A stretch of 64,000 nucleotides of DNA. Source: an uncultured Bacilli bacterium. Its GTDB lineage: Bacteria > Bacillota_I > Bacilli_A > RF39 > UBA660. Numbering within the stretch: position 1 is the stretch's first letter; every line of letters starts with the position of its first letter. The notes under the pieces are model-generated. The model saw only the letters and a program-made list of their open reading frames with translations. It searched no databases and was not told the origin of the DNA. The translations under genes were made by a program, and so were the position numbers. The stretch lies in NCBI GenBank assembly GCA_934162125.1, contig CAKPHU010000001.1, positions 121,352-185,351 on the forward strand, in the 5' to 3' direction. Below, one piece after another: positions 32,905 through 42,721 of this stretch.

Positions 32905-33846
32905 CTACATCATTTCTTTATAGTAAATTGTTTTCTCAACAGCACTTCTGATTGATGATTCATTGAATGGTTTACCTAACATATCAACAATTTGATACTT
33001 GAAAGCTTTATCAATAGTTTCTTTTGAAGAATCACCAGAAATGATTGATACTGGGAACTTAGAGAACAAATTATTTTCTTTCATATACTCTAGAACAGCA
33101 AAGCCATCTACTTTTGGCATGTTAAGGTCAAGTAACATACATACGATATTATCATTTTCTCTATTAGCTGCTAAGATATCGATAGCTTCTTCACCATCTT
33201 TAGCTGTTCCTACACCATAAGTGTCACTGAAGATACGTTTAACAAAGTTTCTAATGATATTAGAATCATCGACAACTAAGATTGTTTTCTTATCATATAC
33301 TTCACCAGTTGGAATGTTTGCTGGTAAAGGGGCAGCAGCTGGAGCTTGAGCTTCTACAGCTGGAGCTACTGGGGCAGCTGGTGTCTCAGGTATAATTGGA
33401 GCAACAGCAGGTGCTGGTGCAGCTGGAGTTGCTTCTGCTACTGGAGCAACAGGAATATTTTGGAAAGCTGGAACTGATCCTGGATGAAGATATTCATTAA
33501 CAACATCAACTGCACGATCAACTTCATCTTTTAATTCTTGATAATGATTATAGATGTAATAGAAGTCTCCTCCTTTACATTTTTGTTCATGAAGACCAGC
33601 TAGTTCAGCTAAATGTGTAAAACCAAAATATGTTGCATCACTAGTTAGAGAGTGAGCATAAATAGCATAGTTTGATAAGTCTTTACTATTTTTATATACT
33701 TCTAGTTTAGCTAGTTTATCTTTAGCACTAACTACTAATTCTCCTACTGTTTGATTATATGTATTTATGTCTCCAAAGATTTCTAAACTCTTGTTGACAT
33801 CTACTCCGTTTTTAATTAAAAAATTTGTATCATTCATTATATTCAC
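32905..33846 (-). CDS. Hybrid HPt (histidine phosphotransfer) and CheY-like receiver protein joined by a Pro/Ala-rich linker
   Basis: N-terminal HPt-like motif (YAIYAHSLTSDATYFGFTHLAELAGLHE). The C-terminal REC domain has DD, the phospho-acceptor D in MLLDLNMP and the conserved K in DMLGKP. A PAVAP-rich linker lies between them. Confidence 0.55.
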   Translation of the reverse strand: MNIMNDTNFLIKNGVDVNKSLEIFGDINTYNQTVGELVVSAKDKLAKLEVYKNSKDLSNYAIYAHSLTSDATYFGFTHLAELAGLHEQKCKGGDFYYIYNHYQELKDEVDRAVDVVNEYLHPGSVPAFQNIPVAPVAEATPAAPAPAVAPIIPETPAAPVAPAVEAQAPAAAPLPANIPTGEVYDKKTILVVDDSNIIRNFVKRIFSDTYGVGTAKDGEEAIDILAANRENDNIVCMLLDLNMPKVDGFAVLEYMKENNLFSKFPVSIISGDSSKETIDKAFKYQIVDMLGKPFNESSIRSAVEKTIYYKEMM

Positions 33847-35281: not shown

Positions 35282-36502
35282 TTATTTTTTTACTTTTTGT
35301 TTCATGATACCATGAGTTGTAGCTCTACGTTCCATTTTAGAAAGTAATGTTTTAGTAGAACTAATACTTTCTGGTGTAATTTCACCAGTTAGACTTAACT
35401 CTAGGGTATCATAAATAAGGGCCTCATAATTAGTTAAATTTTCTCTACCAAAAGCACGTTCTAGATGATCATCACGATTAGTAATAGCACATCTATCTAA
35501 GAAGTGACTGTATTTGGCATCAAAATCATTATATAAAGGCTCTAGTAATGGTCTATAAGCAGAGCAAGACTCTCTTTCAAAACTTGGAAATAAAGGTCCA
35601 AGTGCTTCTAAATCTTTAATAGAACGGGCTTCTGTACGTAATTCATTGATATAACGATATTGAAAAGAATGATTTCTACTAGCAAAAGCTACACCATTGG
35701 GACCTGATTCAATAGCATGTCTATTTTCATGATAGAAAATACCATTAATATCTTTGTCAATATCCGCAATTAATGGAACATAAACATAGGTATAAGTTTT
35801 GCCATCAACAATTAAACTCTTACAGCAAGCTAGTTGATTTGGTTTATATAGTGTATTTACTAAATCAGAATTTGATACTTCTAGGCCAGTTGAAGCATAA
35901 AGTTCTCTTCTAATACGTTGAGCCCAAGGATTATCTGCTACCATAGTATATTTTTGGGCTCCTTTTATATAAGATATTTCGTTAATAATATAATCAAGCT
36001 TATCTTGATCTGATGGCAAGATAATACCATGTTCTTCATAAGTCGCAATTATTTTTTCACGAAAATCATAGTAAGATTCTCTAGACTCTATTGAGACACT
36101 TTCATCTTGATATTCACTAGCCTCGGCACTAGATAAAGAAGCTATTCTAATACGAGAAATCTTCTCTTTTTCTTCATATATTTCTGTATATGATTTAGTT
36201 ATTTTACATGTTTCATAGAGAAAATCCACTATTTCATTTTCCATTCTAGCAATACTTTCATCACGTAAACGACAGTAGATAGCACTTTCTTCTAATAAAT
36301 TACTTGGAACTGGTTCATGATGTTTTTGTAAGAAAGCAATAGTTTGCCATGGTTTAGATTCAAAAATATAACCTGTTTTCTTACTACGATGAACAATATA
36401 TGGTTTATACCAGTAACCATATTCATTTACATAATGTTTTAATAGTTCTTCTCTTTTGGCTTTCAACACTTCTTTAGCATGAATAATTTCGGAAATATCC
36501 AT
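35282..36502 (-). CDS. Hypothetical 406-aa protein occupying the rpmA-obg interval, where Bacillus has spo0B
   Basis: Strong RBS (AAAGGGGGGA) placed after the rpmA terminator. No recognised motifs and no resemblance to Spo0B by eye. Confidence 0.5.
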   Translation of the reverse strand: MDISEIIHAKEVLKAKREELLKHYVNEYGYWYKPYIVHRSKKTGYIFESKPWQTIAFLQKHHEPVPSNLLEESAIYCRLRDESIARMENEIVDFLYETCKITKSYTEIYEEKEKISRIRIASLSSAEASEYQDESVSIESRESYYDFREKIIATYEEHGIILPSDQDKLDYIINEISYIKGAQKYTMVADNPWAQRIRRELYASTGLEVSNSDLVNTLYKPNQLACCKSLIVDGKTYTYVYVPLIADIDKDINGIFYHENRHAIESGPNGVAFASRNHSFQYRYINELRTEARSIKDLEALGPLFPSFERESCSAYRPLLEPLYNDFDAKYSHFLDRCAITNRDDHLERAFGRENLTNYEALIYDTLELSLTGEITPESISSTKTLLSKMERRATTHGIMKQKVKK

Positions 36503-37462: not shown

Positions 37463-37560
37463 TAATATATACCTCCTTCATTTTATAACTTAAGACTCGC
37501 TCGCAAGGTACAATAAATTGTTTAAAACCTTTCAAATGCGGTTTGAGCATGAGGCGTCAA
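37463..37560 (-). ncRNA. Structured 5' leader of about 100 nt upstream of rplU, a candidate L21-type ribosomal-protein autoregulatory leader
   Basis: The long leader lies between a consensus promoter and the rplU RBS and contains a hairpin (GTTTGA-cgcctcatgc-TCAAAC). L21 leaders are known in low-GC Gram-positives. No covariance model was run. Confidence 0.3.
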
Positions 37561-37568
37561 ACAGTTAG

Positions 37569-37597
37569 ATTATAACATATGCTTTATCAAGTGTCAA
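37569..37597 (-). promoter_or_regulatory. Consensus sigma-A promoter of the rplU operon (TTGACA, 17 nt, TATAAT). The -35 lies inside a perfect palindrome TGTCAA-n4-TTGACA.
   Basis: The -10 is complement(37569..37574) and the -35 is complement(37592..37597), both perfect consensus hexamers. Confidence 0.65.
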
Positions 37598-37614: not shown

Positions 37615-39393
37615 CTATACTAGCTCAGTCTTTAATAGTTCTTTATTTCCTGTAGAAACTGATTCTTTTGGAGTAGCATTTAAAGCTTCTAAGTATTCTG
37701 GAAGTTTAGCATCCGGAACAATAAAAGTTGGATTTGTTAAGACTTCAGATAGAGACTCACTATCTACTTCTTGTCCAGTGGCATTTAAAAGAGCTACTCG
37801 GTCCCAACGTTTAGCGGGAATGTTTAATAGATTGATGTCTTCTTCTAGATCTTTGGCATGACCTAGATTAGAAACTTTTTCTATTAATTCATTAAGACTA
37901 CTATTTGTTAAGAAACCTACATTAGTATTGCGATCAATAGCAGATAATAAATCTCTTGATTTTAGAGAGTCAATAGAAGCTTTGATAGTAGTACTATCAC
38001 CTAGTAATGTCTTTGGCGAAGAGTTTAAATATAAAGGATTTAGTCCGGCAGAAACAAAGGCATGAACATTTTTAAAGACATTGATGTAGGCACTACTTTC
38101 TGAATCGAAAACTATTGGATAAGTTGTTAGAAAACTACTATCAATAATTTTACGTTCATATAAATTTTCAAGATGACTAATAGAGTCACTTGTCGCTTTA
38201 GAAAGTATTTCTAGTATCATGTCAGAATCAGTTATTTGCATTTTTCTTAAACTGGTAAGAGAACTATTTATTTCTGATGGAGTGCTTGTTAGTGTTAATA
38301 AATAAGCAAAAGGAACTTCGATACCATGTTTAGCAAAGATACGTTCATAATCATGTTTTTTATCTTGTTCAAGAGCAGTATAAGAAGCTTCTAATGGCTC
38401 ATAGTGACGCATGTTAAGACCATAGATATATTCTAGGACTTGTTTCTTAATCTTTTCATCTTTAGCTTTAGAAACTAGAGATTCATATGAAATACATTCT
38501 CTATCTTCATCTAGGACTCTAAGATCTGCGATTAGTCCATTGTAGCTATTGATAGTCTTAGTTTTTTGACGAACTCTAGTAACATATTTTTGATTTAATG
38601 ATTGGGTTTTATTATTGATACTATCGAGAAAAGCTTTGATGTCTTTTAAATATTCAAACTTAAGTAAAGTTTCTTTAACAACTTTTCTAGCAGTACTATC
38701 AGCTTTCTTTTTTTGTTCAGGTGTCAGAAATTGTTCACTAAGAATTTCGTCCACTGCTTCCTCTGATTGTCTTTGACAGTCATCATAATATTCTTTATAA
38801 GCATGCATCTTGCTGACAAAAGCAGCAGTGCTACCTATAATATCAGAATTATTTTTAATCTCTTCTAGATCTGTTATAAGTCCTTTTTCATCAGCTTCAA
38901 GCATATGTTCTTTAATACTTATTAATTGATATAGGCAAACTAGAAAATTATAAGAATAAGATGGAGCAACGTCTAGAACATTTCCTAAACCATATGCCAT
39001 TGTTATTCTAGCATCAAGTAAAGATAAGTAAGAACGATTTTCGTCTTCTGTTTTATTTTCAAGATCAACATTAACTAAGATATCTTCATTATCTAATACA
39101 ATACCAGCCAGAGCTGTCATAACATCGCGAATTTTATTAGCTGGTATTTGTTCAAATACAGGTGTTACTCTTAAAATAGCATCTTGAACTAATCCTTCGT
39201 CTAAGTTGGTATGATACCATAAATAGATAATGCAAGCACCAGTTATATCTACATCATAGAGGCTTTCATAACTAAAGTATGGATTGTGTTTAAAATATTC
39301 AAGAGCAAACTCAACAATACTATTATCATATTCAATACTTTCTAATCTAGCAATTTCTTCTTCTATTCGGGAAATTAAAAGTTCTTTAGTCAT
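37615..39393 (-). CDS. Hypothetical 592-aa protein, second gene of a two-gene unit with the 318-aa protein
   Basis: Overlaps the upstream gene by 8 nt. No NTPase or other recognisable motifs. Confidence 0.5.
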   Translation of the reverse strand: MTKELLISRIEEEIARLESIEYDNSIVEFALEYFKHNPYFSYESLYDVDITGACIIYLWYHTNLDEGLVQDAILRVTPVFEQIPANKIRDVMTALAGIVLDNEDILVNVDLENKTEDENRSYLSLLDARITMAYGLGNVLDVAPSYSYNFLVCLYQLISIKEHMLEADEKGLITDLEEIKNNSDIIGSTAAFVSKMHAYKEYYDDCQRQSEEAVDEILSEQFLTPEQKKKADSTARKVVKETLLKFEYLKDIKAFLDSINNKTQSLNQKYVTRVRQKTKTINSYNGLIADLRVLDEDRECISYESLVSKAKDEKIKKQVLEYIYGLNMRHYEPLEASYTALEQDKKHDYERIFAKHGIEVPFAYLLTLTSTPSEINSSLTSLRKMQITDSDMILEILSKATSDSISHLENLYERKIIDSSFLTTYPIVFDSESSAYINVFKNVHAFVSAGLNPLYLNSSPKTLLGDSTTIKASIDSLKSRDLLSAIDRNTNVGFLTNSSLNELIEKVSNLGHAKDLEEDINLLNIPAKRWDRVALLNATGQEVDSESLSEVLTNPTFIVPDAKLPEYLEALNATPKESVSTGNKELLKTELV

Positions 39394-40342
39394 TTACTTT
39401 CACCTTTTCTTTCTTGCTTGATTTGTCTTTTTGACCTAGCATTCTAAAAAGTTCTTGTTCATAATCATCTTGTATTTTTAAGAAATCTTCATTTTTTATT
39501 TGTTCTTTAAGGGTAGCTTCTACTTTACGATACTGACTACATCTTAAATTTAGTAGTTCAGAATGTTCTTTATTTCTAGTTGTTTTCTTAGTAAAGGCAC
39601 TGACAATAGCATAAGTATCTTCACCTAAACGATCAAAAACAACACGAACTTTGAAGTCTTTTACTTCTCCGAAGCCTTGTGTAAAGACATTATTAGAACT
39701 TAGACGGTTAAAGTTCTTGAATGTACCGTTTTTAATAGATTCAAATAGACCTAAGAATTTATCATAATAAGTACTATCAATATGACTTAGTTCTTCTAAG
39801 GCACGTGGATAACCAGTTGAAGTTGGAACGAAGATTAAATGGTTAGTGCTTGATATTTCAGTTAAGTCTAATTCTTCTTCGGACATCAGTTCTCTAAGAA
39901 GAGAAATTTGTTGGTTGTTAGTGGCAATGTCTTCGGCAAAAACAGCTAATTCTTCACTGTCTTCAGCAAAGTTTCTAATGGTAGCGTTATTTTTTAATAG
40001 TTCGATAATTAAACGATTAATTACTAATTCATATTTAGCTGAAGACTTGTCTGGTAAAAAGACTAAAAGATCTTCTTTAGTAGCTGGTTTTGGTAAATGG
40101 GCTAATTCTAATAAATAGATGGAAATATCATCTTCAAAATCCTGGTCGGTACGATCAATTTCAGGTGTTTCTTCTAATTCAGGTTTTCTCATATAGTCAG
40201 TTGGTTCGTAATGAGCTTCTTGAAGAGAAGAAGAGGCAACTATTTCACGACGCATTTCTTTAGCAATTCTGATATTTTGTGATAAGACTTTTTGCAGTGC
40301 TTCATTATTTAGAGAAGCTGGTTCAACTTTAATAAATTCCAT
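39386..40342 (-). CDS. Hypothetical 318-aa acidic protein whose C-terminal segment resembles RelE/ParE-superfamily (Gp49/HigB-like) toxin domains
   Basis: C-terminal ...VKDFKVRVVFDRLGEDTYAIVSAFTKKTTRNKEH... fits the Gp49/RelE-like pattern (...yRvlYf..gd.ivLLhgF.KKtqk...). Strong RBS (AAAAGGGGGA) and its own consensus promoter. Confidence 0.45.
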   Translation of the reverse strand: MEFIKVEPASLNNEALQKVLSQNIRIAKEMRREIVASSSLQEAHYEPTDYMRKPELEETPEIDRTDQDFEDDISIYLLELAHLPKPATKEDLLVFLPDKSSAKYELVINRLIIELLKNNATIRNFAEDSEELAVFAEDIATNNQQISLLRELMSEEELDLTEISSTNHLIFVPTSTGYPRALEELSHIDSTYYDKFLGLFESIKNGTFKNFNRLSSNNVFTQGFGEVKDFKVRVVFDRLGEDTYAIVSAFTKKTTRNKEHSELLNLRCSQYRKVEATLKEQIKNEDFLKIQDDYEQELFRMLGQKDKSSKKEKVKVND

Positions 40343-40370
40343 ACCACAATCCCCCTTTTTGTCTTTGCAT

Positions 40371-40398
40371 ATTATAGCATTTTTTTAGTGATATAGCA
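40371..40398 (-). promoter_or_regulatory. Sigma-A-type promoter (TTGCTA, 16 nt, TATAAT) driving the 318-aa/592-aa gene pair
   Basis: The -10 is complement(40371..40376) and the -35 is complement(40393..40398). Confidence 0.5.
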
Positions 40399-40427
40399 AG
40401 AAAAACTAGTATTATCAAGCATTTAGG

Positions 40428-40453
40428 CAAAAGAAAAAGTCCATTTCTGGACT
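40428..40453 (-). terminator. Rho-independent terminator (AAGTCCA-gaaa-TGGACTT plus a T-run) immediately after the 680-aa gene
   Basis: Read on the minus strand directly downstream of the stop at 40458. Confidence 0.5.
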
Positions 40454-40457
40454 TCAT

Positions 40458-42500
40458 TTAATCTCTTTTAACGTATGCTTCACCTTTAACCGGTTCATTT
40501 GATACAGTTTCAGTTACCATAGTTTCTAACTCATTTGTTTGAGCTTGTACTGGTGTGGCAGCTGGACTATAAAGAGTATCTACTGGATCAGTATATTGAA
40601 CTGCTGGCATAGTAGTTGGTGCAGGTGCTGGAGTTGAAACTGGTTCATAAGCCGGAGCTTCTATTGGAGCTGGTGCAACTGGAGTAACTGGTGTCATTTG
40701 TTCTTCTTCATAAGTATCAAACTTAATAGCAGGAATTGTTTCTGGTTCTGGCATTACCACAGCATTAAAGTTTACAGCTGGTGCTGATGCCATAGTAGGC
40801 ATTTGATATTCATCTTTCTCTTCTACTATTGGAGTTGTAACTGCTGGTGTTTCTTCAGTTAAAGACACTGGTATGTTAGCTGACTCTTTTGGTTGGAATA
40901 CTTCGTTCACAGCTTCACGTACTTCATTAACTTTTCCTTTTTCGTAAACTGTTTGAGCAGAAGTTTCAATTAGTCTCATGGCATCAGCATAAGTACTTGG
41001 AGCATAAAAATCAACATTTTCTTTTTCTTTGCCAGTGTAGAATCTAACATCTTTATATTCTTCTCCAGCATAAGATACGATATTTTCTCTTAACTGTTCT
41101 AAAACTTCTTGACGCTGTAGTTTCTCAGCTTGTAGTTGGCTTCTAGCTTTTGCGACATTCTCTTTTAGTTCAGATATAGCCTCTTCACTATGAGCTATAT
41201 CTCTTCCAACGGCACCTAAGCTTTCTTGCAGGCTTTCAGCACTACTAAAGTCTAAACCATTTTTTATACCTAGAAGAGAAGTATATTTGTTTTTATACCA
41301 GTTTATGATTTCACAACAAATCTCGTCACTAAATCTTTCTATTTGCATATTATAAATTGCAAGTTCAGATTTAACTCTAGAAGTTTTAATAATTTTTTTA
41401 GCAAGTTTATCACGACGTTCTGTAAGATCTTTTAGATGTTCATATGCAAAAGGTGTTTGAATCTTTGACTCGTGTTGTCTTATTTCTTCTAAAGTTGGAA
41501 CTCTTTTATTTCCGTTGTCATATCCAATATATTCATGGCCAACTAAGAAAGATATTTTTTCTGGAGTTAATTCTTCATATAATAAAGTGTTTTTAGCTTC
41601 TTTAAATCTTCTTTCATAATCTCTTACAACCATTTCAAGAATACTTCTATCTTCAATAGTGTGAATAAATGCATCTTTCTGTTTGTCAGTGTGTAAGGCA
41701 ACTAGATTTCTAAGATCTTCAGGTAACTGATATGGGTTTGATACAAATAATGTAGTTCGAACTGGGGACTGCAACATAAGATCTCTTTGAGCACCATAAT
41801 TAGCTACCATTCTAGCCATTTTATCGGCTTTTTCTGGATCGTTTGCGAATTGAGCTAACATCTCCGCACCTTTTGAAACATCTATACCATTAGTTAAAAT
41901 CATTTCATAATAAGCTGGGTTTCCAGTCTTTTCGGCAAGAGATCGTCTTATTTCTTCTGGAGTACGAGTTGCGATAGCATCAATTTCAAATTGAAGACTT
42001 TCTCTATCTCTAGCTATTGCTTGGAAAACATAGCCTGTTTTCTCATCATACCTATTTAATTCAGATTGGAAGTAATTTCTATCACGTAATGCTTCTCTCT
42101 TAGCTTCAGGAGTTTCGGCTGTTACACTTTTAGTAATACTTTCTCTTAATCTAGCTTCTAGAACAGTTTTAAGTTCACGAGCCTCACGCTCACGAGCAGT
42201 AATTTCATCAATACGAGGTTGGAATTCAGCTATTTTTTCTTGATTATAGGCTCCTAATTCTTCAGGTGTCATAGCTTTAATTCTAGCATAGGCAGGTAGT
42301 CCTACCATGTTATTTAGGCTATTCCATCTATCTCTAAGAAGACCTCTTTCTCTTGTAGCTTCTGCAATTATTCTTACATCTTCTTCAGTTTTCTGACGTT
42401 TGCTTTCATGTTCAGAAATTCTGTCATCTAAAGCTGTGACCTGGTCTTGAAGTTCAGCCATTTCACGTTCAAACATTGTTAAGAATTCTTCTTTAGTCAT
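40458..42500 (-). CDS. Hypothetical 680-aa protein with an Arg/Glu-rich coiled-coil N-terminal half and a Pro/Ala/Thr/Val-rich disordered C-terminal tail
   Basis: No enzymatic motifs. Composition is seen directly. Translationally coupled to an upstream 47-aa micro-ORF. Confidence 0.5.
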   Translation of the reverse strand: MTKEEFLTMFEREMAELQDQVTALDDRISEHESKRQKTEEDVRIIAEATRERGLLRDRWNSLNNMVGLPAYARIKAMTPEELGAYNQEKIAEFQPRIDEITAREREARELKTVLEARLRESITKSVTAETPEAKREALRDRNYFQSELNRYDEKTGYVFQAIARDRESLQFEIDAIATRTPEEIRRSLAEKTGNPAYYEMILTNGIDVSKGAEMLAQFANDPEKADKMARMVANYGAQRDLMLQSPVRTTLFVSNPYQLPEDLRNLVALHTDKQKDAFIHTIEDRSILEMVVRDYERRFKEAKNTLLYEELTPEKISFLVGHEYIGYDNGNKRVPTLEEIRQHESKIQTPFAYEHLKDLTERRDKLAKKIIKTSRVKSELAIYNMQIERFSDEICCEIINWYKNKYTSLLGIKNGLDFSSAESLQESLGAVGRDIAHSEEAISELKENVAKARSQLQAEKLQRQEVLEQLRENIVSYAGEEYKDVRFYTGKEKENVDFYAPSTYADAMRLIETSAQTVYEKGKVNEVREAVNEVFQPKESANIPVSLTEETPAVTTPIVEEKDEYQMPTMASAPAVNFNAVVMPEPETIPAIKFDTYEEEQMTPVTPVAPAPIEAPAYEPVSTPAPAPTTMPAVQYTDPVDTLYSPAATPVQAQTNELETMVTETVSNEPVKGEAYVKRD

Positions 42501-42636
42501 TTGTTCTAACCTCCTCTAGTCTATCTAATAAATCTTCTAATTCACTAACGGAAAGTTCAGAAAAAAGTTGAGTTAATTCTTCTTTACTTAAGGCTAGTAG
42601 TTTTTCCATAGTTTCACTACGTCCAGTTTCATTCAT
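42493..42636 (-). CDS. Micro-ORF of 47 aa (MNETGRSETMEKLLALSKEELTQLFSELSVSELEDLLDRLEEVRTND), acidic and helical, whose stop overlaps the start of the 680-aa gene (ATGACTAA)
   Basis: RBS AAAGGAG 8 nt upstream. A consensus promoter (TTGCTT, 17 nt, TATAAT; -10 at complement 42693..42698) lies upstream. Not in the ORF track because it is under 60 aa. Confidence 0.4.
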   Translation of the reverse strand: MNETGRSETMEKLLALSKEELTQLFSELSVSELEDLLDRLEEVRTND

Positions 42637-42692
42637 ATTTACAACTCCTTTGTATTTTTAGATGCCTTCTTACTATCATCTATTCTATGTTA

Positions 42693-42721
42693 ATTATAGA
42701 CTTTTTTAATGATAAAAGCAA
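42693..42721 (-). promoter_or_regulatory. Sigma-A-type promoter (TTGCTT, 17 nt, TATAAT) for the micro-ORF/680-aa unit, located just downstream of the addA stop
   Basis: The -10 is complement(42693..42698) and the -35 is complement(42716..42721). Confidence 0.5.

Follow-up and report, generated by a model that had tools for sequence, protein, structure and literature searches.

The window analysed here, a stretch of 64,000 nucleotides from an uncultured Bacilli bacterium, carries between addA and rplU, the gene of ribosomal protein L21, a block of four minus-strand genes which consists of two unrelated gene pairs, independently transcribed and each translationally coupled. Here we name these pairs Unit 1, encoding a micro-protein of 47 amino acids (aa) and a 680-aa protein, and Unit 2, encoding protein A (318 aa) and protein B (592 aa). 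Judged by predicted structures, Unit 2 appears to be a new architectural variant of the RelE-superfamily module, in which the toxin-fold gene is followed by a giant partner. With somewhat less than even confidence we read it as a chromosomally fixed derivative of HigBA/gp49-type toxin-antitoxin modules, in which B, possibly together with the acidic N-terminus of A, restrains a ribosome-dependent nuclease domain. All the evidence consists of sequences and predicted structures from metagenome-assembled genomes (MAGs) of uncultured organisms.

An earlier reading of the same stretch, referred to below as the original prediction, had described the four genes as an inserted block reminiscent of defence or toxin-antitoxin modules and had matched them to nothing it could name. 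Indeed, none of the four proteins gave a hit above threshold in Pfam, NCBIfam, PADLOC or PHROGs, only noise (E>0.2) was obtained from PADLOC-DB 2.0, and there were no consistent matches in these collections. Both pairs represent families that are uncharacterised and confined to uncultured gut Bacilli, and neither corresponds to a described defence system. Relatives were found solely in MAGs that carry the labels Bacilli, Tenericutes, Mycoplasma sp. CAG:877, Erysipelotrichaceae and Candidatus Faecimonas, and wherever source annotations name any of these proteins, they are called hypothetical.

Proteins A and B of Unit 2

The AlphaFold2 (AF2) model of A (predicted local distance difference test, pLDDT, 82) contains at residues ~165-256 the BECR/RelE fold by which the RelE/ParE superfamily is recognised. 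This HigB/RelE-fold domain is basic (isoelectric point, pI, 9.0); it is preceded by an acidic helical region (residues 1-164, pI 4.4) and followed by two C-terminal helices. Homologues of A form 77 clusters, all of ~320-340 aa, and are 32-41% identical outside the genus. Pfam Gp49 (PF05973) is matched by 24 of 34 relatives at E<=1, and two relatives (P0020 and P0064) exceed the gathering score, with 24.9 and 26.0 bits against a cut-off of 23.9. Together with the modelled fold, these matches confirm the RelE/Gp49-like C-terminus that the original prediction had recognised in the 318-aa protein. Residues R233, R238, Y244, K252 and K253 are invariant in the relatives, and position 260 is tyrosine in at least 90% of them and histidine in the window protein. 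The invariant basic and aromatic residues map to the sheet of the RelE-fold domain. The set in A may be of the kind used by RelE-type mRNases, which rely on such constellations of basic and aromatic residues.

Relatives of B were gathered from the loci adjoining A homologues, and these partner genes were aligned for its AF2 model (pLDDT 81 overall, above 90 over most of residues 300-570). The model is all-helical, with an N-terminal bundle, a poorly modelled part at residues 100-175, very long helices at 169-293 and a C-terminal solenoid with a repeat period of ~30-33 residues. The best structural matches of the solenoid are MTERF4, MTERF1, MTERF3 and TALE repeats, all with modest scores; in Foldseek the probability is 0.95 for MTERF3 and 0.77 for MTERF1, TALE repeats are also retrieved, and every E-value is 0.2 or higher. 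Pfam mTERF (PF02536) is matched by none of 38 B-family members at E<=0.1, hhalign between solenoid segments reveals no significant internal repeat (probability at most 3%), and the B-family profile retrieves nothing informative from PDB sequences. Because of these structural matches, yet with no E-value below 0.2, no Pfam match and no sequence repeats, the C-terminal half of B can be taken only with moderate confidence for an mTERF/TALE-like solenoid of the nucleic-acid-binding type.

Members of the mTERF family and TALE repeats bind nucleic acids, and the modelled B resembles MTERF1, MTERF3, MTERF4 and TALE proteins in its predicted all-helical solenoid of ~30-33-residue repeats. It differs from them by lacking a Pfam mTERF match and repeats at the sequence level, and by having the solenoid in its C-terminal half only. 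Prokaryotic mTERF-like proteins that bind DNA, the pTERFs, were described from Bacillota MAGs in 2024 (PMC11417379). Similarly to these, B is bacterial, comes from Bacillota gut MAGs and is mTERF-like by structure and not by sequence. However, pTERFs have 3-11 recognisable tandem repeat units (with a period of 35 residues in pTERF1, MBQ3414883.1), whereas the repeats of B are degenerate and none is recognisable with hhalign; in addition, B contains further domains of large size, and its gene always accompanies one that encodes a RelE fold. If its solenoid is real, B would be a second kind of bacterial mTERF-like protein after the pTERFs.

Most B-family proteins also carry an extra C-terminal segment of ~70 residues with the motif TxRTYxIxGVxxSKNKVxRNL (e.g. 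L007, 12600-12879, and L009, 12600-12845), which is missing from the window B and its closest relatives (L010, L013).

Pairing, position and transcription

The search with A covered one genome per species and was positive in 56 species, across which A-B is inherited vertically. A homologous B gene (~530-660 aa) overlaps or abuts the A gene in 54 of them. A and B of one pair share their nearest relatives, the identity matrix of A is correlated with that of B (Pearson 0.83), and paralogous pairs cluster together; the two proteins therefore evolve as cognate partners. Two A-B pairs in tandem are found in eight species (L022, L024, L026, L031, L037, L039, L040 and L053), the copies within one genome being 30-44% (A) and 22-35% (B) identical. 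Since each copy is closer to its orthologues in other species, the duplication is ancient.

The two remaining species of the 56, at loci L065 (107-2654) and L066 (9845-12019), have a shorter or truncated A-like gene that matches the RelE-fold half only, and ~250 bp after it a 438-aa ORF (open reading frame) which is not recognised by the B-family profile. This arrangement may be a divergent variant of the A-B module.

The rplU gene lies downstream of A-B within 10 kb in 36 loci and within 600 bp in 29, and A-B is syntenic upstream of rplU in 29 of the 56 species; addA precedes the pair in 29 loci, between 89 bp and 9 kb away. These placements give the ancestral order addB-addA-[variable slot]-A-B-rplU-ysxB-rpmA-...-obg. 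At least eight loci have no rplU within 8 kb downstream of A-B, and the pair of L009 is located between xseAB and spoIVB. On comparison of these gene orders, Unit 2 is an ancestral resident upstream of rplU and not an insertion. The original prediction had rightly named addA and rplU as flanking core genes (both AddA and L21 were confirmed), but of the block which it called inserted only Unit 1 occupies the variable slot, Unit 2 being ancestral upstream of rplU clade-wide. Nor do the four genes co-occur as a block outside the genus-level lineage, as the neighbourhood comparison that it had proposed now reveals; within the species itself, long contigs from human-gut metagenomes show an identical architecture.

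The slot between addA and A-B holds 0.1-9 kb of other genes elsewhere. In the nearest other species (L010-L015, e.g. L013, 7968-9986) it is occupied by a DinG-like helicase of 672-674 aa (DEAD_2/Helicase_C_2), and in L010 additionally by a transposase, a VWA protein and a SpaA-like surface protein. Its varied content makes the slot a hotspot of gene turnover.

A-B evolves quickly at this fixed place. The sister species L069 has the same gene order, and in comparison with it AddA is 94% identical (ratio of nonsynonymous to synonymous rates, dN/dS, 0.08), the 47-aa protein 96% (0.14), A 73% (0.20) and the 680-aa protein 55% (0.56), the last diverging evenly along its whole length; the first 205 residues of B are 47% identical. 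Clade-wide mean identity is 33% for A and 23% for B. In related loci L21 is 79-94% and Obg 74-87% identical to the proteins of the window.

The features of the block are collected in Table 1. The ORF list agrees with the original prediction in the sizes and coordinates of the four minus-strand genes, and the translational coupling proposed there is seen as an 8-nt overlap in each pair. The junctions of both pairs are the same 14 nt, AAATGACTAAAGAA, read in one frame as ...N D stop and in the other as M T K E, and for this reason both large proteins start with MTKE. The identical junction and the shared N-terminal start of the large proteins probably reflect constraints of coupling. All four proteins are acidic (pI 4.2-5.0) and without transmembrane segments; as far as Walker A and HExxH motifs are concerned, the prediction that no Walker motif or enzyme signature would be found also holds for the four.

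Table 1. Coordinates of genes, domains and signals of the two units and their boundary with rplU (positions in the window)
Feature	Position	Strand	Source
47-aa micro-protein ORF (Unit 1)	42493..42636	-	ORF list
680-aa protein ORF (Unit 1)	40458..42500	-	ORF list
Protein A ORF, 318 aa (Unit 2)	39386..40342	-	ORF list
Protein B ORF, 592 aa (Unit 2)	37615..39393	-	ORF list
RelE/HigB-fold domain (BECR, Pfam Gp49-type) of A, residues ~165-256	39575..39850	-	
Predicted mTERF/TALE-like helical-repeat solenoid of B, residues ~300-573, period ~30-33 aa	37675..38496	-	
Promoter-like site of Unit 1, TTGCTT-17-TATAAT (-10 consensus, -35 3/6)	42693..42721	-	direct reading
Intrinsic terminator ending Unit 1 (8-bp stem, loop of 4, T-run)	40436..40455	-	sequence scan and reading
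Promoter of Unit 2, TTGCTA-17-TGcTATAAT (extended -10)	40371..40399	-	sequence scan and reading
Identical 14-nt junction AAATGACTAAAGAA in both gene pairs	42486-42499 and 39379-39392	-	
rplU promoter TTGACA-17-TATAAT (12/12) and L21 leader RNA; boundary, outside both units	37483..37597	-	
L21 leader RNA (Rfam RF00559, 39.1 bits)	37483-37553	-	

Both of the independent promoters claimed in the original prediction exist as promoter-like sites, although the spacer of the Unit 2 promoter is 17 nt and not 16; the hairpin and T-run of its Unit 1 terminator were found as well. The Unit 1 promoter was not listed by the promoter scan because its -35 hexamer is under the cut-off of the scan, and it is kept in L069 as TTGCGT-17-TATAAT. 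In this AT-rich stretch promoter-like matches occur at the level of chance (33 observed versus 33.0 +/- 5.9 in shuffles). Hexamers alone therefore prove nothing, and the Unit 2 promoter stands above chance because of its conservation: in ~36 related loci the A gene is preceded, at the same place, by TTGnnn-17-TGnTATAAT, a short leader (~20-30 nt) and a ribosome-binding site GGGGG. A-B is accordingly a conserved, separately transcribed unit, and its transcription is probably strong. As rplU has its own 12/12 promoter and the L21 leader downstream of the stop codon of B, A-B shares no operon with rplU-ysxB-rpmA.

Possible roles of Unit 2

The reading of Unit 2 as a HigBA-type module with an unprecedented giant partner is based on the toxin-fold gene coming first, the co-evolution, the ancient duplicates and the fast evolution. 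The traits that A-B has in common with HigBA are the RelE fold, the gene order, the overlap, an own promoter, cognate co-evolution, retained duplicates and a fast rate. As in type II modules, the genes are adjacent and co-transcribed, with a single promoter upstream of A. The BECR/RelE fold of the A model is that of HigB of S. pneumoniae (6af3) and of HigB1 from the TAC (toxin-antitoxin-chaperone) system of M. tuberculosis (7nbu), and HigBA modules are likewise cognate co-evolving pairs. PF_gp49 toxins are ribosome-dependent mRNases whose gene is upstream of the antitoxin gene (PMC11980606), similarly to the toxin-fold gene of A-B, which lies upstream of its overlapping partner. The differences are considerable. 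HigBA toxins are ~100-120 aa in size, whereas A has 318 aa with an acidic N-terminal extension of 160 residues and extra C-terminal helices, and the partner is a helical-repeat protein of ~600 aa with no XRE or helix-turn-helix (HTH) domain. HigBA modules are typically patchy or mobile, whereas A-B is inherited vertically at a fixed core locus in the whole clade.

A RelE-superfamily domain inside a larger protein, as in A, is also known from multidomain BECR toxins such as gp49-HTH fusions, ToxM and ptuXYZ (Gerdes, 2025, PMC11980606). In the multidomain gp49 proteins of that survey an HTH domain is fused to the C-terminus, and many multidomain forms having no recognisable antitoxin were omitted from its analysis (PMC11980606). 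While the fused antitoxin of the gp49 forms is a C-terminal HTH domain, A has its additional region, which is acidic and helical, at the N-terminus, and its giant partner is a protein of its own. The A-B architecture is not among the gp49 forms described in PMC11980606.

If the HigBA-type reading is correct, A and B would be made in a fixed ratio from one strongly promoted mRNA with a short leader. A would carry a RelE fold of the ribosome-dependent mRNase type behind its 160-residue acidic extension, and the giant helical B would replace the usual small HTH antitoxin. In the cognate complex the RelE-fold domain would be kept off the ribosome, B thereby neutralising the RNase activity of A, and the solenoid of B might bind nucleic acid, either the promoter of the unit or an RNA. 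Upon loss or displacement of B, the domain of A would enter the ribosomal A site and cut mRNA, leading to translation arrest.

Several observations weigh against this reading. The window's own A has no Pfam Gp49 match even at E<=1, and the A-family profile retrieves no HigB from PDB sequences. In place of a small antitoxin with an HTH, XRE or known DNA-binding domain there is B with its 592 aa, in which no HTH or other known antitoxin domain was found, and no consistent Pfam domain was seen in 38 relatives. Neither A nor B has relatives in the phage, plasmid and viral collections searched. A patchy, mobile distribution is typical of type II modules, though not defining, and for toxin-antitoxin modules both the strict vertical, syntenic inheritance beside core genes and the absence from such collections are atypical. 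Moreover, the acidic N-terminal region of A could itself be the neutraliser, leaving another role for B. A-B departs from known modules in three traits: it is fixed at a core location across a clade, its two proteins differ in size and architecture, and no known antitoxin domain is present.

A more far-reaching version, to which we give a rather low probability, is that A-B forms a new class of ribosome-targeting module, in which a nuclease domain of the gp49/HigB type is held and steered by an mTERF-like, potentially sequence-reading solenoid, and which has been fixed beside L21-L27-Obg since the origin of an order-level clade of gut Bacilli. If true, this would be the first link between BECR toxins and mTERF-like repeat proteins, and the functions that MTERF3 and MTERF4 have in association with the ribosome would gain a precedent in bacteria.

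The same neighbours raise the question of whether Unit 2 is instead a domesticated housekeeping factor associated with the ribosome or RNA, where the RelE fold would serve as a dock on the ribosome and the solenoid as a binder of rRNA or other RNA, working together with L21, Prp, L27 and Obg. MTERF3 and MTERF4 act in the assembly of the mitoribosomal large subunit, and such ribosome-assembly roles would fit the solenoid. RelE-fold proteins bind the ribosomal A site (PMC11980606). The vertical inheritance over 56 species and the strong, constitutive-looking promoter also favour a housekeeping factor, as does the location of A-B, which in 29 of the 36 loci with rplU in reach is no more than 600 bp upstream of this gene. 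Adjacency to ribosomal genes is, however, weak evidence, because these genomes are small and rich in translation genes; the separate promoter and leader of rplU exclude a common operon, and rplU is missing within 8 kb downstream in the eight or more loci mentioned above, with the L009 pair by xseAB/spoIVB. Furthermore, A-B evolves far faster than core genes and has kept ancient tandem duplicates. As for the housekeeping homology that the original prediction had considered, Unit 2 is indeed conserved at this position, but no homology to a known housekeeping protein was found. A housekeeping role is the main rival of the HigBA-type reading, and on balance we consider it rather improbable.

Still less probable is that one or both units are new anti-phage systems of the abortive-infection type, in which a phage cue would free the RelE-fold nuclease or an unspecified effector activity of the 680-aa protein. 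A part in defence has been argued for toxins of the BECR fold, multidomain ones among them (PMC11980606). The rapid evolution of the large proteins is what an arms race would lead one to expect (for the 680-aa protein, a dN/dS of 0.56 and 55% identity, against 94% for AddA), the slot of Unit 1 is variable, and in L078 a homologue of its gene pair is found among PoNi, AAA_14/DUF4143, serine-recombinase and Abi_2 genes. On the other hand, no consistent PADLOC matches were obtained for the window proteins or for either large family, members of which gave only sporadic matches of the coiled-coil type; the genomic contexts are mostly core genes (tuf, rpsJ, frr, cysS, alaS, nusA, recU), the phage, plasmid and viral collections yielded no relatives, and the 47-aa and 680-aa proteins have no recognisable enzymatic domain. 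Of the resemblances noted in the original prediction, that to toxin-antitoxin modules is reasonable for Unit 2, through its RelE/Gp49-like domain; neither unit lies in a defence island here. A defence role, unlikely as it is, would be compatible with the toxin-antitoxin reading.

Should Unit 2 work as the HigBA-type reading proposes, the architecture of the RelE superfamily would be widened to a multidomain toxin-fold protein guarded by a helical-repeat protein of 600 residues. It would also follow that such a module can stay at a single core locus while a whole uncultured gut lineage diversifies, and yet far outpace its neighbours in evolution. This fixed yet fast pattern is relevant to the unsettled purpose of chromosomal toxin-antitoxin modules.

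Unit 1 and neighbouring genes

The 47-aa protein of Unit 1 has a pI of 4.2, is predicted to be helical and carries the motif EKLLSLSKEELxxIFSQLSxxEIEDLLNKLNEV. In the 680-aa protein a conserved helical/coiled-coil body (residues 1 to ~535) is followed by a lineage-specific tail rich in P, A, T, V and E (536-680), in agreement with the P/A/T-rich tail of the original prediction. Neither protein has a family match in Pfam or PADLOC. An exhaustive HMMER search extended the 680-aa family to 63 representatives, mostly of 520-590 aa, with 22-30% identity over residues 1 to ~500; in PDB the family profile matches coiled coils only.

The pairing was checked in 11 loci outside the window species (L068 to L079 except L074). 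An ORF of 44-50 aa precedes the large gene in every locus examined, with an 8-nt overlap in nine of ten loci that show both gene calls, and the micro-proteins are 50-60% identical between loci whose large partners are 26-30% identical. The 47-aa product is a genuine micro-protein under constraint, and more than just a leader ORF. Matches to the alignment of the micro-protein were also obtained from metagenomes, on short contigs. The protein is a strongly conserved 47-residue addition to the real micro-proteins of bacteria.

Several other identities were considered and rejected. Mimicry of the L7/L12 N-terminal domain, or a relationship to the H-NS N-terminal domain, was below threshold for the 47-aa protein (best E-values 0.0038 for L12 and 0.0018 for H-NS; 0.21 for a PDB bL12 chain). 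Unit 1 is not a degenerate duplicate of Unit 2: hhalign of the 680-aa and 592-aa families aligns the first 39 columns only (MTKEE[FL]L..I..E; probability 18%), and the 47-aa and A families give no alignment. The N-terminal MTKEE[FL]L helix, the only feature that the large proteins share, may reflect constraints of translational re-initiation. The 680-aa protein also has no similarity to the DinG-like helicase found in the same slot of the nearest species or to a 408-aa protein of L007.

Homologues of Unit 1 are located after tuf, before rpsJ-rplC, before frr, after cysS, beside recU, and between alaS with a pilin-like gene and an LD-carboxypeptidase gene with nusA. The Unit 1 family was not found within 10 kb of A-B in any other species, nor was any A or B homologue found near Unit 1 family members elsewhere. 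On these grounds Unit 1 is an independent pair that landed in the variable addA/A-B slot, its adjacency to Unit 2 being specific to the lineage.

In L078 (1-21656) the Unit 1 homologue is accompanied by genes for a PoNi immunity-like protein, a zinc-ribbon protein, AAA_14/DUF4143, sigma-70 region 4, a large serine recombinase and Abi_2. This region resembles an island of the mobile or defence type, whereas the other Unit 1 homologues have core contexts.

For Unit 1 we envisage a separate complex of two proteins, in which a small helical subunit, acidic and highly conserved, is joined by a fast-evolving coiled-coil protein. That the latter is a structural or scaffolding protein, e.g. of division or the cell envelope, with the micro-protein as its small assembly subunit, is very doubtful: the family profile does match only coiled-coil proteins, some homologues adjoin cell-wall genes (LD-carboxypeptidase, VanY, penicillin-binding protein with RecU) and the lineage-specific low-complexity tail is linker-like, but the 680-aa protein has no membrane segment, matches no known cytoskeletal family, varies in genomic position and evolves very fast for a scaffold.

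Farther downstream, a 406-aa ORF (35282-36502, minus strand), which lies between rpmA and obg, carries the HExxH motif HENRH at residue 258 and gave no match in Pfam, NCBIfam, PADLOC or PHROG. Its homologues, 25-31% identical, are found at the same position in L023, L035 and L045; in Bacillus subtilis this is the position of spo0B. Just downstream of obg, a 313-aa protein is encoded (32905-33846, minus strand) in which an Hpt domain is joined to a receiver domain by a P/A-rich linker. This protein is 49-60% identical in the same place of most related loci and could be a fused phosphorelay component. In addition, weak Pfam SAP and Rho_N matches were seen on ribosomal proteins L20 and S2 of a related MAG (L008, 483-2099), so that ribosomal proteins of this lineage may carry additional helix-extension-helix modules by fusion.

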